Positions 1,781-43,977 of a stretch of DNA of 64,000 nt are shown here, piece after piece; positions within the stretch are counted from its first letter, which is position 1, and every line of letters begins with the position of its first letter. The DNA is taken from the NCBI GenBank assembly GCA_049652745.1, contig JBASEY010000033.1:20159-84158 (forward strand). Direction: 5' to 3'. A model generated the notes under the pieces. That model saw nothing but the letters and a program-made list of their open reading frames with translations, made no database searches and was not told the DNA's origin. The position numbers and the translations under genes were made by a program. Source of the DNA: a bacterium. GTDB taxonomy: Bacteria > CSSED10-310.

Positions 1781-1899
1781 GGGGTGAGCTTTATTTTGAA
1801 GACGGCGAGTGTTCGTGGTTTTTCAAAACACTTAAAAAGACTGTGGCGTTTGGGTTAACGGCAAGCTTCACCCGCAGACACTGACAATGTGTTATTTTT

Positions 1900-1938
1900 C
1901 CGCGGTGTGATATCGATGTCGCACTGCGGCTCTTTTTA
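1900..1938 (+). terminator. Candidate intrinsic terminator downstream of paralog A.
   Basis: Imperfect inverted repeat ccgcggtg...cactgcgg (7 of 8 bp), followed by the T-rich ctcttttta. It lies about 120 nt after the stop codon. Confidence 0.35.
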
Positions 1939-2079
1939 CGGGAACCATCTATGAAAAGGCAGACATTCAGAGAAATAAAAATTTCTTTTCGAACCTTTTT
2001 ATATCATTATAGGCAAACACTTTCACTTTGAAGATTTACCCCCAGACATCTGATCGATCGATTATTTTTTTTGCGCCGC

Positions 2080-2108
2080 TTGACAAATTCATTTTCTTCT
2101 GTTAGTAA
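2080..2108 (+). promoter_or_regulatory. Candidate sigma-70 promoter for the paralog B transcript.
   Basis: TTGACA at 2080-2085, a 17-nt spacer, then TAGTAA at 2103-2108. Confidence 0.35.
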
Positions 2109-2246
2109 TTATTATTGCTGTCAACAAACTCTACTGTGGTGTTGCGGTGTTGTATTTAGGGGATAAGTGTGAAGGGGGATGGTGATTTAATCACATGCTG
2201 GTGAATGCATTGACGCCACGGGCAATAGTCTCTACAGAGCAAATTC

Positions 2247-2290
2247 CGGTCTCCGCCGGAAGGGTGTATCCGGTATGGAGACCGTTTTTT
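2247..2290 (+). terminator. GC-rich hairpin plus U6 tract in the 5' leader of paralog B. It is a candidate attenuator or sRNA 3' end.
   Basis: cggtctcc at 2247-2254 pairs with ggagaccg at 2277-2284. An inner ccgga/tccgg pairing sits between them. tttttt follows at 2285-2290, 78 nt upstream of the ATG at 2368. Confidence 0.45.
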
Positions 2291-2367
2291 ATGTCTATAG
2301 CTCATGAAACAGGACTTGTTTCATTGAACTCAACAAACCGTGTAATGCGGAAGGGAGGAATTTTTCT

Positions 2368-4743
2368 ATGAAGAAAATGTTAATGTTAGGTTTTATCGTG
2401 CTGATTTTCTGTAGTTATGTCGCTGCGGAAACCGGCCAACTCAGCGCGAATACGCGCATAATTCAGCTCAATAGGATCGAAAAGAATATATTGAGCCCGC
2501 AGGTTTCTTCCGGCGATTGCAGTTCGGCATCGAGCTATCTTGCCAAATCAGACACGATCATCGAGAACCTGAGCCTGAACAAAATGGACTCGCCAATCAG
2601 CGCCGAGACAAAGCTGGATGCCCAGGTAATTCAGGAGCGGAACAGCCGTCAAAACTGTCCTGGTCTTCTGGCCTACAGCAATACTGACATCGAAGGTTAT
2701 TTTCCACCTGCGAACAACGTGAGCATAGCGGATGACATTATTTTGAATGTTGCGGGCGGAGGAGATCTGGTTTGCTATGAAATCGCATTTGCTTATGGAG
2801 CTTTCGTAGCCCCCCAAGTCAACGTCAACGCAGCCTTATACAATGGTCGTCCGGATCAGGGCGGGCAGTTGATTCCCGGCACCGAAGCAACGTGGGTGTT
2901 TGATTCCAGTGTTGAAGTGGGATATTATTACACCCTTACTGCAGAACTGGCAACGCCGGTTGCTATCCCGGAAATCGTTTTTCTTGTGATGAGTAAAAAC
3001 GCCGGTGGTAATGACAATGGATTTGCAGTTGCCGGAGCGGCGGAAATTGGGTATACGAACGATTGGTTTTGCATGCAAAATCCCGGCTGGATATGCGGCT
3101 ATTATTTCGGCGGCGACCCCTGGGCCGGATTTTTTGCAGAGTTGTATCTGGATATAGACCTGGAACCCTGTGTGACGTGTCCTCCCGGTGGGATCTTGGA
3201 AGCTGAACCGGCTTGCGGACCGGATTACGTGGATACCTACAATGGCGGTTGCAACAGTAACCCACCGGTTTTTCAGGCCATTTCCAGCGGGAACGTCATC
3301 TGTGGTCAGACCGGAGTGTTCGAAAACAGCGACTCGACCATTTCTCGTGATACCGATTGGTTCTCATTCACACTTGGCGAAGCCATGCTGGTCGAATGGG
3401 AAGTTTACGGTGAAGCTCCAATGCTTGCCGCAATTGCCAAACCGGGATCTGCCGGATGTGATGACTTTGAAGTTCTGGCCCTCGACACCGCAAATTATTG
3501 TGAAACTGTTTATCTTAGCGAAGTGTTGCCTGCGGGAACATACTGGGTTATCGCAATGGTCGATAATTTCTCAACATATTGGGAATGTGAAATTCCCTAT
3601 ATTGCATCGTTCAACACTATCAGCCTGACCCCGTGTGTGAGTTGTCCTCCCGGCGGTATTCCTGAAGGCGAACCTCCTTGCGGACCAAATTATAATGATA
3701 CGTTCAACGGCGGTTGCAACAGCACCCCATCCGTATTCCGACCTATTAGCAACAACAACGTCATCTGCGGCCAGACCGGTGTGTTCGATTATTCCGGAGA
3801 CACCTATCGTGATACCGATTGGTTTGTGTTCCAAGTCACTGAATACAGCTTGGTGGAATGGGAAGCCTACGGTGAAGCTCCAATGATGGTTGCTCTGATC
3901 GATCCGGGAGTAGCCATGCCCGATGGCTGCGCCGACATGTCGATTTTGGGTGTCGGCGTGTCACAGTACTGCGAAACCGCGACGATCAAACGCCTGGTGG
4001 AACCTGGCACGTATTGGGCTTTCGTATCGCTTGATACATTTAATGAATTCTTTGCTTGCGAGATTCCATATGTTGCTACGATTCACTGGGAACCTGCCGA
4101 TCCTGAAGACTGCGGTCCGGATACCATTTTCCCGCAGCCCTTTGCGGCGGAGGTCGTCTATGTCAATTCCGATGCCAATTCCGGTATCATCGTAGCGGAT
4201 GATTTTTCAGGTCTGACAGAGGCGATCACTGCGGTGGAGTGGTGGGGCGGCAACCTGAATAACAGCCCAACCTGGCATGGATGCACCAAACCCAATTCGA
4301 ATTTTGTCATCACCTTTTATCAGCCCGGAGCAGTTCCCGGGGCCGTCGTTTATCAGAAAACCGTCACAGCAGTTAAAACCCAGACCCTTCAGTTTGTATT
4401 TGGTAACACAGCTTACGGTCCTGTGATGAAATACAGAGCCGAGTTGCCGTCATCTGTCAGCATTCCCGCCGGGTGGATTTCCATTCAAGCTGTTGACAGC
4501 GGGACTTGCTGGTTCATGTGGGCTGATTCCGGAGCGCCGCCTGCCTCCGGCAGCGCTTTCGTTAGAGACTCAGGCTCAGGTTGGGAACTCGACGCGGAGC
4601 CAGATAATCAAGTTGATCTCGCTTTTTGCCTGATCGGCGGTGAACCACAACCCATTCCTGCCACATCACCCGTTGGTATCAGCATAGCATTGCTTGTCAT
4701 TGGAATTATGATCGCTCTGCCGATGCTGAGAAAATCTCTGTAA
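2368..4743 (+). CDS. Secreted Cys-rich PPC-like surface protein, paralog B. It has a signal peptide, two tandem ~155-aa modules, the conserved C-terminal domain and a TM-anchor-like tail.
   Basis: A GGGAGG RBS precedes an N-terminal MKKMLMLGFIVLIFCSYVAAETG. Two modules each carry C..CPPGG...CGP.Y.DT.NGGCNS...ICGQTGVF plus RDTDWF.F. The C-terminal domain resembles paralog A. The tail is SPVG-ISIALLVIGIMIALPML-RKSL. Confidence 0.85.
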   Translation: MKKMLMLGFIVLIFCSYVAAETGQLSANTRIIQLNRIEKNILSPQVSSGDCSSASSYLAKSDTIIENLSLNKMDSPISAETKLDAQVIQERNSRQNCPGLLAYSNTDIEGYFPPANNVSIADDIILNVAGGGDLVCYEIAFAYGAFVAPQVNVNAALYNGRPDQGGQLIPGTEATWVFDSSVEVGYYYTLTAELATPVAIPEIVFLVMSKNAGGNDNGFAVAGAAEIGYTNDWFCMQNPGWICGYYFGGDPWAGFFAELYLDIDLEPCVTCPPGGILEAEPACGPDYVDTYNGGCNSNPPVFQAISSGNVICGQTGVFENSDSTISRDTDWFSFTLGEAMLVEWEVYGEAPMLAAIAKPGSAGCDDFEVLALDTANYCETVYLSEVLPAGTYWVIAMVDNFSTYWECEIPYIASFNTISLTPCVSCPPGGIPEGEPPCGPNYNDTFNGGCNSTPSVFRPISNNNVICGQTGVFDYSGDTYRDTDWFVFQVTEYSLVEWEAYGEAPMMVALIDPGVAMPDGCADMSILGVGVSQYCETATIKRLVEPGTYWAFVSLDTFNEFFACEIPYVATIHWEPADPEDCGPDTIFPQPFAAEVVYVNSDANSGIIVADDFSGLTEAITAVEWWGGNLNNSPTWHGCTKPNSNFVITFYQPGAVPGAVVYQKTVTAVKTQTLQFVFGNTAYGPVMKYRAELPSSVSIPAGWISIQAVDSGTCWFMWADSGAPPASGSAFVRDSGSGWELDAEPDNQVDLAFCLIGGEPQPIPATSPVGISIALLVIGIMIALPMLRKSL
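3160..4089 (+). repeat. Two tandem 465-nt intragenic modules (3160-3624 and 3625-4089). A third copy lies in paralog A at about 575-1039.
   Basis: The protein-level repeats LEPCVTCPPGG...ASFN and LTPCVSCPPGG...ATIH are in register. At the nucleotide level they have diverged. Confidence 0.6.
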
Positions 4744-4751
4744 GTTTTTTT

Positions 4752-4801
4752 AGAATCCGCAACACAGCCGCAAGGATTACCCTGTTGCGGATTCTTTTTT
4801 T
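4752..4801 (+). terminator. Rho-independent terminator after paralog B.
   Basis: gaatccgcaaca..tgttgcggattc is a perfect ~12-bp stem. It is followed by cttttttttt. Confidence 0.75.
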
Positions 4802-4816
4802 AAAAGGAGAATGACA

Positions 4817-6862
4817 ATGAAAAGCCTGTTTCGATATTCGATACTGTCGGTGCTGATTTTCAGCCTTTCCCCTATCTATGCTCAGACTTGGGTCGAGGTT
4901 ACCGATAAGTTGGGGCTGACCGGCACACCGTCCTTTCGGATTTCGATCGTCGATCTGAACGGGGACGACTATCCCGACTTAGTGGTTCATGACGCCGTCG
5001 ATCATGCAAATTGGGATGTCATGAACAAAATGTATGTTTATTTGAATGTGGAAGGCGATACATCAGGCACTCGCAAGTTCATCGATTTCACTGAAGAATC
5101 CGGTATTCGTGCCAACAGGCGCGGGACTAAAGACGGCCGTCACTCCGACCTGGCTATTTTCGGTGATATCAATAACGACGGTTATCCGGACTATTTTGCA
5201 GGCGTGTATTACCATCGTCATACGTTCATACCCGAAAATATCGAATGGCTCGATACCAGCGAAGTTTTCTTGAATGACGGCACTGGCCGCTTCACGTTGG
5301 TTCCGGATACGCTCTTCTTCGACGGTGGTCTGACCAATGTTTCAAGCGCAGTTTTCGCTGATTTTGACCGTGACGGCAACCTGGACCTATTAGTCGGCAA
5401 TTGGTTCACCAAATATTTCGGCGGAACCGGCGACGTGTTCGCTCCAGATCAACTTTTCCGTGGCAACGGTGACGGAACGTTTCAAGACATGTCGGGAACA
5501 TCTGGCATACAGAACCCGGAAGTTCTCCAGCCGACTTACGGCGCTGCCGTCGCCGATGTCGATGAGGACGGATATCCGGATATTTTCCTCGGCAATTACT
5601 GTCGAGACAAATCGAAACACCTTCGAAACAACGGCGATTGGACCTTTACTGAAATTCATGAAACGTCGAATTACGGTCAATATGTCGGTCCCGGCAACTG
5701 CGCCTCCCACACCTGTTCATGGGGTTCCATGCCGCGGGATTTCAACAATGATGGTCATATCGACCTGTTCACGATCCTTGTTCACGGCTGTAGAAAAGTG
5801 ATGTCGGCGCCTTTGATCAACGATGGCACCGGCGTTTTCACCTGGGATTTCGATTGTATCAAAAGCCGCCTGGACGATGATCCGGCCAAACTGCACCATG
5901 GCGATCATTTTGCGACCTGGGTTGACTGGAACAACGACGGACTTGTCGATTTGATCCTGTCTGAAAACGGTTATGACAACAACCGGTTTTATATTTTTCG
6001 CCATGAACCGGATCACACACTCCAAGTCATTACACCGTCAACAGCGATGAGTGTTTTGAATACGGAAAATGTCTCGGTTCATAATGTTTCCGTTTTTGAT
6101 TTCGACCTGGACGGCGACGATGACATCATCATCGGCTCCGGTGACGGCGGACCTCTCCGAGTCTTCAGGAATGATATCGGGAACGCCAAAAATCATTTGA
6201 CGGCTACACTGGTCGGGGCCGGCAAACCAGGATTCAGCAACACATCGGCTATCGGCGCCAAAATTCAAGTGACCTACGGCGACACTACAATCACCCGCGT
6301 CGTGCGAGCCGGCGACGGCCATTTCGGCCCTCAAGTCCCGTTCAGACTGAATGTCGGTTTGGATACCGCCGCGCAGGCTGACCTGGTCACAATCACCTGG
6401 CCTAATCTTAGCCAGGATGTCTACAAGCTCAAAAAAATACCCGCCAATTCGCACATACGAATTTATGAGAATCCCGATCCGATTAAAAACGCGTCCGGCA
6501 CACGCCTATTCATCCCCACCGCTCATGTAACGCCAGGGGACCGCTTCAGCGTTTGGAGCTATTTATACAACAATTCCACACAAACCATGAAAAAGATTCC
6601 TTTTATGGCTGTCTTGGAAGTCGCGGGTATGTATTGGTTCTGGAACACCTGGTCGGAAGATGTCGGATATGATATTGTCGATGTCGACCCAGGCGTGACC
6701 ATGATAAACATACTGCCGGAATTTCAGTGGCCGGATACCGGAGACGGATCATTTGACGGCATCAGGTTTTACGCTGCCATGCTGAACGACTCGATGGACG
6801 ATATCATCGGCGGTTTTGACGGTTTGGGCTTCGCGGAATTTGGTTACGGCCCGAAAAAATAA
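4817..6862 (+). CDS. CRTAC1-family secreted protein with FG-GAP beta-propeller repeats and an ASPIC/UnbV domain.
   Basis: A signal peptide MKSLFRYSILSVLIFSLSPIYAQT follows an AGGAG RBS, spaced for the ATG at 4817. FG-GAP loops include DLNGDDYPDLVV, FDRDGNLDLLVGNW, DVDEDGYPDIFLGNY, FNNDGHIDLF, WNNDGLVDLIL and FDLDGDDDIIIGSG. The UnbV-like segment is AIGAKIQVTYGD...HFGPQ...VTITWPN. Confidence 0.8.
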   Translation: MKSLFRYSILSVLIFSLSPIYAQTWVEVTDKLGLTGTPSFRISIVDLNGDDYPDLVVHDAVDHANWDVMNKMYVYLNVEGDTSGTRKFIDFTEESGIRANRRGTKDGRHSDLAIFGDINNDGYPDYFAGVYYHRHTFIPENIEWLDTSEVFLNDGTGRFTLVPDTLFFDGGLTNVSSAVFADFDRDGNLDLLVGNWFTKYFGGTGDVFAPDQLFRGNGDGTFQDMSGTSGIQNPEVLQPTYGAAVADVDEDGYPDIFLGNYCRDKSKHLRNNGDWTFTEIHETSNYGQYVGPGNCASHTCSWGSMPRDFNNDGHIDLFTILVHGCRKVMSAPLINDGTGVFTWDFDCIKSRLDDDPAKLHHGDHFATWVDWNNDGLVDLILSENGYDNNRFYIFRHEPDHTLQVITPSTAMSVLNTENVSVHNVSVFDFDLDGDDDIIIGSGDGGPLRVFRNDIGNAKNHLTATLVGAGKPGFSNTSAIGAKIQVTYGDTTITRVVRAGDGHFGPQVPFRLNVGLDTAAQADLVTITWPNLSQDVYKLKKIPANSHIRIYENPDPIKNASGTRLFIPTAHVTPGDRFSVWSYLYNNSTQTMKKIPFMAVLEVAGMYWFWNTWSEDVGYDIVDVDPGVTMINILPEFQWPDTGDGSFDGIRFYAAMLNDSMDDIIGGFDGLGFAEFGYGPKK

Positions 6863-43558: not shown

Positions 43559-43652
43559 CTCATCAATAAACTAGCATGGTTTCATCTGCATAAAAAGGGG
43601 TTATTTTTTAATTGACATGTCGAAACTCGCTAATTAGAGTTTCCACGATGTC

Positions 43653-43725: not shown

Positions 43726-43977
43726 TAAAGCTGAAATAAATGGCAACAAGCTTTCTGTAAACCCGAATCGATTACTGAAAAATATAAACTCGATTAATCT
43801 TGTACAAGACACAAAATCGGTTAGTGGACTTGATATTTTTGATTCAAGTATCGCAATAATGCAATAAACAACGTGCTTCTTTTTTTACGTACAGGCAAAA
43901 TCATTGACAGATCGGCTTCAAAAAAGATAGAATTAAAGCTGATTAGCGTGTTTTTTTTGGAAAAAGGAGAATGTGTA

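Follow-up and report, generated by a model that had tools for sequence, protein, structure and literature searches.

A conserved 5' leader with a candidate transcription attenuator in a tandem cluster of surface-protein genes from a CSSED10-310 bacterium

The 64,000-nt stretch of contig JBASEY010000033.1 analyzed here (assembly GCA_049652745.1, a bacterium of the CSSED10-310 lineage; hereafter, the window) begins inside the gene for paralog A of a tandem family of predicted surface proteins, which is followed by the gene for paralog B. The stop codon of A ends at position 1780 and the ATG of B is at 2368, leaving a spacer of 587 nt. These coordinates, given in an earlier, sequence-only reading of this DNA, are borne out by direct reading, and the four elements reported there (a promoter, a hairpin, a 26-codon open reading frame [ORF], and a stop codon of that ORF overlapping the start of B) are all in place. 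The spacer consists of two parts, 1781-2079, which is not conserved and holds the terminator of A, and 2080-2367, which holds the promoter and the leader of B. The best reading of the latter part is that it comprises the promoter and the ~255-nt 5' leader of B and serves as a cis-acting transcription attenuator, an assignment for which the chances appear about even. It would represent an undescribed family of attenuators within a kind of element that is itself well known. The features that carry this reading are as follows.

2080..2108, plus strand: sigma-70-type promoter, with the -35 hexamer TTGACA at 2080-2085, a 17-nt spacer, and the -10 hexamer TAGTAA at 2103-2108
2247..2290, plus strand: intrinsic terminator (putative attenuator), a nested GC-rich hairpin at 2247-2284 followed by U6 at 2285-2290
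2368..4743, plus strand: paralog B, a 791-aa secreted or surface protein with a signal peptide

The hairpin at 2247-2284 has the form CGGUCUCC-GCCGGA...UCCGGU-GGAGACCG, with an outer stem of 8 bp and an inner stem of 6 bp. Its predicted energy is -24.5 kcal/mol (z = -3.86; none of 200 shuffled sequences was as stable), and the U6 tract starts directly after the last pair, so that the GC-rich hairpin noticed in the sequence-only reading is a canonical terminator, displaying both sequence features of Rho-independent termination, a GC-rich stem-loop and an abutting run of U residues. Its sequence is unique within the window. In the window, the terminator lies 78 nt before the start codon of B. 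In a second species, known from contigs L005 and L029 and from L028, a close variant found in another sample, the terminator segment is 86% identical. The U6 tract is retained in L005, and the hairpin, despite substitutions at 6 of its 38 positions, still folds at -20.1 kcal/mol, partly via a shifted pairing register; in a simulation, 5% of random sets of six substitutions retained such stability (P = 0.05). A scan of all 64 kb for hairpin energy combined with an abutting T run found a stability of at least -18 kcal/mol with six or more T residues only here and at 4753-4801, just after B. Together with the terminator of A, the strong terminators of the window all lie in the paralog cluster (1900-1937, 2247-2290, and 4753-4801), and most other genes in the window have no canonical terminator.

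The upstream boundary of the leader is set by the end of the preceding gene.

1900..1937, plus strand: intrinsic terminator of paralog A, a 13-bp hairpin at 1900-1929 followed by CUCUUUUU, from a consensus scan and folding

This hairpin folds at -20.9 kcal/mol (z = -4.44), a stability that none of 200 shuffled sequences reached. The transcript of A ends there and is separate from that of B. Because A carries its own strong terminator, B needs the promoter at 2080; the order of the spacer is, accordingly, the 3' end of A, non-conserved DNA, and then the promoter and leader that belong to B. Reading of the 77 nt between the U tract and the gene (2291-2367) revealed no pair of -35 and -10 hexamers, and the candidate -10 sequence TATAGC is CATAAC in L005. 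As there is no promoter between the U tract and the gene, B would be made only by read-through, and the hairpin would therefore act as an attenuator, whether regulated or not. Of the earlier interpretation, the promoter, the terminator, and the idea of a regulatory leader that has to be read through are upheld.

The sigma-70-type promoter at 2080-2108 is well supported by comparison of the two species. Their similarity begins exactly at the -35 hexamer, the promoter segment is 86% identical, and all seven leaders of the paralogs and their orthologs (see below) open with TTGAC(A/T/C). The -10 region follows after 16 to 17 nt and reads TAGTAA or TAATAG in B, CAGACT or CACACT in A, and TACACT or CACACT in C, the third paralog of the cluster. 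While the proposed TTGACA-17-TAGTAA promoter is therefore present and supported, its -10 hexamer is weak or ambiguous: TAGTAA agrees with TATAAT at only three of six positions and has no final T, which is why the consensus scan made no call at 2080. Similar promoters occur elsewhere in the window. The tRNA-Lys gene has TTGACA-17-TAGAGT at 43612-43640, ending 13 nt before the mature 5' end, and the pattern TTGACW-N15-18-TANNNT was found 9 times against 3.6 expected. The organism thus appears to use TTGACA-17-TAG..T promoters and canonical terminators at the ends of its genes. Transcription of B would start at about 2114-2116.

2065..2072, plus strand: T8 tract directly upstream of the -35 hexamer, from reading the sequence

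The second species likewise has a T-rich tract at this place, as does the tRNA-Lys gene ahead of its promoter, and the tract at 2065-2072 is possibly an UP-element. Another near-consensus promoter, TTGACA-18-TAGAAT, is seen at 43904-43933, at the 5' end of a 1703-aa FG-GAP/Big_5 ORF; since the listed GTG start of this ORF (43873) lies upstream of that promoter, its actual start codon is probably a later one. A 10-nt inverted repeat (2090-2099 and 2370-2379) has one copy in the promoter spacer and is uncompensated in L005, and was taken as a chance occurrence.

The sequence-only reading made its proposal depend on conservation of the leader in relatives. Only one other species carries close orthologs (a scan of the genome collection with protein B found only L005, and a protein search found close homologs in just two or three species), with a B protein that is 67 to 69% identical to that of the window. 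In this one available relative the leader is conserved, and more so than the gene itself: from the -35 hexamer to the ATG, the two species are 81.9% identical, as compared to 73.8% for the coding DNA of B, 57.1% for its four-fold degenerate sites (50 to 65% in three other genes), and 46.0% for the 300 nt upstream of the -35 hexamer. The leaders of A and C are 80.5 and 69.5% identical, respectively. Because its identity exceeds that of both the four-fold sites and the upstream DNA, the B leader from -35 to ATG can be said to evolve under purifying selection, and under a stronger one than the B protein. The conservation is distributed over the following segments.

2114..2129, plus strand: copy 1 of the direct repeat AUUGCUGUCAACAAAC (family D2, 81% identity), located where the transcript is predicted to begin
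2156..2246, plus strand: central part of the leader, 76 to 80% identity
2329..2367, plus strand: most conserved segment, 38 of 39 positions identical (97%) between the species

The central part contains the conserved blocks UUAGGGGAUAAG, GUGAAGGG, GGUGAUUU.AUCA, GGUGAAUG.AUUGACGCCAC, and GAGCAAAUUCC. The 77 nt on the 3' side of the terminator are the best conserved stretch of the leader; within them, 2329-2367 contains copy 2 of the direct repeat, a small hairpin (CCGU-GUAAU-GCGG), and a strong ribosome-binding site, AAGGGAGGA, at 2351-2359, 8 nt before the ATG of B. Copy 2 of the repeat, AUUGAACUCAACAAAC, follows at 2323-2338, immediately behind the stem-loop in front of the ribosome-binding site. 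L005 retains both copies, and the repeat could be a binding site. In L005, a 289-bp unit that does not occur in the window is present twice in tandem (3084-3653, 97% identical) immediately upstream of the -35 hexamer of B. Each unit holds the inverted repeat TTGAACACGATT...AATCGTGTTCA and may be a small mobile or repeat element.

The B leader is one of a set. In contigs of the same species, the genes for C (844 aa), A (656 aa), and B (791 aa) follow one another in tandem (L006 4419-12376; 20-4743 in the window), each preceded by a TTGAC -35 element and a leader of ~260 nt. The C and A leaders are homologous over their entire length, and RNAalifold predicts for them four hairpin domains with 9 pairs that show two-sided changes, from five sequences of which three are near-identical. 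With these leaders B shares the promoter, the central motif RUGAAYGGAU located after a G-rich block, and a 3' module that consists of a U-rich stretch, a stem-loop of 10 to 12 bp, and a strong ribosome-binding site.

2302..2327, plus strand: stem-loop before the ribosome-binding site, CAUGAAACAG-GAC-UUGUUUCA(U)UG, from pattern matches

In every species, the leaders of C, A, and B alike carry this stem-loop (fold z = -2.1), whose 3' strand, UGUUUCAUUG, does not vary. When 160 kb were searched with a covariance model built on the 3' module (R1), the nine known copies were recovered and no others. Among the stem-loop copies, 91.7% of the cells are paired and six pairs vary on one side, none on both, which is consistent with a conserved structure but does not prove it. 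A scan of the metagenome with the degenerate stem-loop pattern ATGRAAYRNGNCYTGTTTCATTG yielded 17 loci, all of them unrelated; they are mostly terminators of another organism, and the one in L015 is a chance look-alike. All copies of the element lie immediately in front of a gene for C, A, or B. Since a model of the central domain of the A and C leaders (R2) had no match in the B leader, the leaders cannot be pooled for covariation beyond the 3' module, and a full-length MAFFT alignment of all seven misaligns B.

The three paralogs differ at the position of the terminator. At the homologous place, the C leader has a hairpin followed by U6-7, at -9.7 and -12.7 kcal/mol, weaker than that of B. 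The A leader has no terminator and carries instead a stable local hairpin, GGAUGCA..UGCAUCU, which in one alignment (A1) is matched with an alternative hairpin in B (2244-2261, described below). Taken together, the leaders resemble a single design that is locked open in A, has a weak stop in C, and has a strong stop in B.

Traces of exchange within the family and more distant layouts were also seen. Compared with L005 475-560 and L006 4126-4210, the C leader of L028 has a 5' third (127-230) that resembles the A-type leader and not the C leader of the window species; this mosaic suggests sequence exchange (gene conversion) between paralog leaders. The distant homologs P0003 and P0008 have different leaders. 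In P0003 (L007 5742-6000, from another organism), the promoter TTGACA-17-TAGAAT is followed by a leader of ~190 nt, in which GGGGG-N5-AUG opens an ORF of 16 codons and the ribosome-binding site comes after a stem-loop and UUAAACC. This layout loosely parallels that of the B leader and is not detected by models R1 and R2.

The sequence-only reading had also allowed for a separate small RNA (sRNA) of ~170 nt that would end at the hairpin. In such a case, an independent transcript of ~175 nt (about 2115-2290) would act in trans and the B mRNA would be a by-product or would come from another promoter. Release of sRNAs from 5' leaders by premature termination is known in other bacteria, and the promoter at 2080-2108 and the strong terminator at 2247-2290 indeed bracket a conserved stretch of 175 nt. 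However, this stretch has no exceptional fold and nothing similar elsewhere in the window, the element is found solely in front of the paralogs of one gene family, and the homologous A leader has no terminator. Moreover, the best conserved stretch is the one downstream of the terminator (2291-2367), where no conserved promoter is seen. An sRNA with a role of its own appears, on balance, rather unlikely.

In the attenuator reading, RNA polymerase that starts near 2115 would meet the terminator at 2247-2290, and only the read-through fraction would give B mRNA; the leader would thereby set or switch the expression of B. The read-through transcripts would carry the stem-loop at 2302-2327 and the strong ribosome-binding site. 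For this to occur, the 5' arm of the hairpin would have to be occluded or out-competed during its synthesis, either by a ribosome that translates an open frame (2195-2371) through the hairpin, in a coupling of the pyrL/pyrBI type, or by a trans-acting factor that favors a local alternative hairpin. The two candidate features are the following.

2195..2371, plus strand: 58-codon open frame starting with ATG at 2195 (the frame is open from 2186)
2244..2261, plus strand: local alternative hairpin UUCCGG-UCUCCG-CCGGAA, from folding

The alternative hairpin has predicted energies of -9.6 kcal/mol in the window and -6.5 kcal/mol in L005. Because both structures use the 5' arm of the terminator, it excludes the terminator hairpin and is a candidate weak antiterminator.

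The open frame changes the view of the 26-codon upstream ORF. Its ATG (2291) and its stop codon TGA (2369-2371), which overlaps the ATG of B, exist as described, but it is not a separate coding unit: it forms the tail of the 58-codon frame that starts at ATG 2195 and runs through the terminator. It is also not strictly correct that its start has no obvious Shine-Dalgarno (SD) sequence, as the 3' arm of the hairpin contains GGAG (2277-2280), located 10 nt before ATG 2291. The longer frame has an SD-like block, GGUGAU, 8 nt before its start codon in both species (2181-2186, before ATG 2195, in the window); the ortholog has 56 codons and a GTG start, and an in-frame GTG at 2201 of the window aligns with the start codons of the other leaders. 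In all seven leaders, RUGAAYGGAU, with its RUG as the codon and a G-rich block ahead of it, opens a frame of 52 to 62 codons across the position of the terminator. In four leaders, the stop codon of this frame overlaps or directly adjoins the main ATG; in the remaining three, it is 27 to 34 nt upstream of it. Of the two features expected in leader-peptide attenuation, a start codon with an SD sequence and an ORF across the terminator are found, whereas an ORF longer than expected by chance is not. No run of a particular (regulatory) codon was seen in the frame. Other small ORFs of the region (those on the minus strand within 2156-2305 and a plus-strand ORF at 2071-2166) are not conserved in L005.

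Several observations weigh against regulated attenuation by this leader. The -10 hexamer of its promoter is poor. The 90 nt before the terminator fold no better than shuffled sequences (z = -0.9 in one species and +0.9 in the other), and the structures of minimum energy are not the same in the two. The alternative hairpin is weak in comparison with the terminator (-9.6 and -6.5 vs -24.5 and -20.1 kcal/mol). Just two B-type sequences are available, and no base pair has changed on both sides. The length of the open frame falls within the range of dinucleotide shuffles (P = 0.13 to 0.17 for B and 0.02 to 0.33 overall), and the other frames of the leader are nearly stop-free, too. The frame shows no codon periodicity in B or C (in B, the differences are spread 8/8/7 over the three codon positions). 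The SD-like block, at the aligned spacing, is ~12 nt from the start codon, farther than in real genes here. Finally, the A leader keeps the remainder of the leader yet has no terminator.

The same data bear on the question of whether a functional small protein is made from the frame 2195-2371 or from its last 26 codons (2291 onward). In its favor, neither species interrupts the frame, which finishes with ATGA on the main start, each of the seven leaders provides a start codon and an SD-like block, and the A-type pair shows a mild third-position excess (4/7/13). In B, however, 15 codon changes between the species are non-synonymous and 2 are synonymous, with no preference for the third position, the length is within chance, and the frame has no Pfam match. 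Moreover, it passes through the shared stem-loop differently in different leaders (PVSL, PCFIGFK, or ALFHWI*). Because the shuffle, periodicity, substitution, and frame controls are all negative, the leader peptide is not conserved, the frame is probably not a peptide gene, and a functional product must be considered highly improbable; the frame as such may still be translated.

A metabolite or second-messenger riboswitch of a new class, with an aptamer in 2115-2246 and the terminator as its expression platform, would have the right layout: a promoter, 130 nt of alternating conserved and variable blocks, and a terminator. A possible closing stem of GGGAU (2159-2163) and AAUUCC (2242-2247) would compete with the hairpin at 2244-2261, which itself competes with the terminator. 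Surface-protein genes are typical targets of cyclic-dinucleotide riboswitches. Nevertheless, comparison with 4227 Rfam families found only the tRNA-Lys in the whole window at the gathering threshold, and nothing relevant on the B, A, and C leaders at E values up to 10 or on the L005 leader at E values up to 1; the weak matches near the C leader and on the B leader were to eukaryotic RNA families, far below the thresholds. The poor folding of the region and the lack of a shared minimum-energy structure, the failure of the A/C central-domain model to find B, and the absence of the three-state overlap from the A and C leaders all speak against an aptamer as well. On the two B-type sequences, a metabolite aptamer is not supported, and a riboswitch seems quite improbable; as there is no stable conserved fold upstream, the stop is most likely not overcome in this way.

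Protein-dependent antitermination was considered, too. For an ANTAR-type or RAT-type antiterminator, the expected signature is two hexaloop hairpins (with A at loop position 1 and G at position 4) or a RAT sequence over the 5' arm of the terminator; inspection of 2200-2262 showed a sole overlapping hairpin, with a UCUCCG or CUCC loop, and no second hexaloop hairpin. No NusG-family Pfam domain was detected among the genes of the inspected parts of the window and of the upstream region, with about 16 to 30 kb of the window lying outside that search. Seven GGA triplets were counted by eye in a search for CsrA-type sites against about 4.6 expected from the base composition, but only B, not A or C, has a GGA in the loop of the stem-loop, and this candidate was dropped.

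A further possibility is that the terminator is simply leaky and constitutive. The hairpin and U6 would then lower or insulate transcription of B, or stabilize a processed RNA end, without any switch; a fixed fraction of polymerases would read through, and the leader would be kept for translation efficiency, mRNA stability, or protein binding sites. Indeed, since A retains its leader without a terminator, termination is not the sole reason for the conservation of the leader, and the A leader evidently works without one. Furthermore, no convincing conserved antiterminator or sensor fold was found in the B leader, and a second strong terminator right before the next gene suggests that leakiness is routine in this cluster. 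On the other hand, a hairpin of -24 kcal/mol with a perfect U6 is normally efficient, and selection has kept this one, within a leader of 255 nt whose conservation exceeds that of the gene. We regard a terminator without any switch as an unlikely, although not far-fetched, explanation; with the leader-derived sRNA, it is the chief rival of the attenuator.

The second terminator belongs to the same apparent transcription unit, in which B is followed by a gene for an FG-GAP/ASPIC protein and then by one for an S8 protease with a dockerin domain.

4753..4801, plus strand: terminator after paralog B, a hairpin followed by U7, -18.6 kcal/mol

It is located 9 nt after the stop codon of B and 2 nt before the ribosome-binding site of the FG-GAP/ASPIC gene (AAGGAG, 4804-4809), so that there is no room for a promoter after it and this gene depends on read-through. 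The hairpin is kept in the second species (L029 3566-3606), where the spacer is 273 nt. Read-through would be needed again at this second stop. Intrinsic terminators placed a few bases after a stop codon are almost completely suppressed by the terminating ribosome (PMC4824070), and the position of the post-B terminator fits a cluster in which the state of translation could set termination; the cluster also leaves room for processive antitermination of the LoaP type.

A broader version of the attenuator reading is tentative and, in our view, doubtful. It holds that the C, A, and B leaders constitute an undescribed family of ~260 nt that serves as an antitermination device, translation-coupled or loaded with a factor, and also carries polymerase past the post-B terminator to the FG-GAP and S8 protease genes, which would have no promoter of their own. 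The leaders would have been duplicated together with the surface-protein genes in bacteria related to the candidate phylum CSSED10-310, and a frame unconstrained in sequence, starting at the SD-like block and RUGAAYGGAU, would be translated through the terminator and coupled, via ATGA, to the main start.

Comparison with characterized leaders reveals partial likenesses. In Bacillus subtilis, bmrB-bmrCD is an antibiotic- or stress-responsive, ribosome-mediated attenuator with a long leader peptide, and this type of system combines a defined antiterminator/terminator pair with ribosome stalling. The B leader similarly has a leader ORF of about 50 to 60 codons that extends over the terminator region directly upstream of the regulated gene, but no conserved antiterminator/terminator pair. 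Processive antitermination leaders are represented by the EAR element of the eps operons. The systems controlled by LoaP and other NusG paralogs (PMC12691694) resemble the B leader in having a conserved leader RNA upstream of an intrinsic terminator, with a further terminator inside the apparent unit (here, 4753-4801) ahead of genes for extracellular functions; however, the B leader has no match to a known leader hairpin. Terminator-type riboswitches and orphan premature-terminator leaders (PMC2965389) also have a long conserved leader that ends in an intrinsic terminator before the coding sequence. Unlike them, the B leader has no Rfam match and no stable or covarying aptamer fold, and its family is confined to one paralogous gene family in two or three species.

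The closest parallel for translation through the hairpin is pyrL/pyrBI of Escherichia coli, where, according to PMC5021804 (citing Roland, Liu and Turnbough 1988), tight coupling of ribosome and polymerase across the leader peptide prevents formation of the terminator hairpin. The shared features are a terminator in the 5' leader, a frame with an upstream purine-rich block that runs through the hairpin and U tract, and expression by read-through only. The differences are the length of the frame, 56 to 62 codons (within chance, with translation putative) instead of 44; the lack of a U-rich pause region before the B hairpin, as judged by reading the sequence; the ATGA with which the frame ends on the main start; and the target, a surface protein rather than a pyrimidine enzyme.

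The phosphoglycerate kinase encoded in the window shares 68% identity with proteins that bear the name "candidate division CSSED10-310," a phylum that is rare and uncultured (PMC8248873). Because the window encodes lipid A and lipopolysaccharide genes, an outer membrane can be expected. If the attenuator reading is correct, the leader would give an uncommon insight into how genes are regulated in a phylum that only metagenomes have revealed, in which canonical sigma-70-type promoters, intrinsic terminators, and leader-based attenuation would operate. A regulatory leader would have been copied along with a tandem surface-protein gene and would then have diverged (strong in B, weak in C, and absent in A), so that the graded series of terminators would be a natural experiment on the gain or loss of an attenuator. 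The practical value of the finding is modest for now.

The proteins themselves have few recognizable features. None of the C, A, and B paralogs has an informative Pfam or NCBIfam match. The C terminus of B consists of IPATSPVG, a membrane helix, and an LRKSL tail, and the pattern IP(A/S)T(S/G)P.G followed by a hydrophobic helix and a basic tail is shared by A, B, and the distant homolog P0003. It looks like an undescribed C-terminal sorting signal; C does not have this tail, and P0008 has a dockerin domain instead. The FG-GAP/ASPIC protein downstream probably starts at the ATG at 4817 rather than at 4811, because its ortholog in the second species begins with MKSLFRY (L029 3830).

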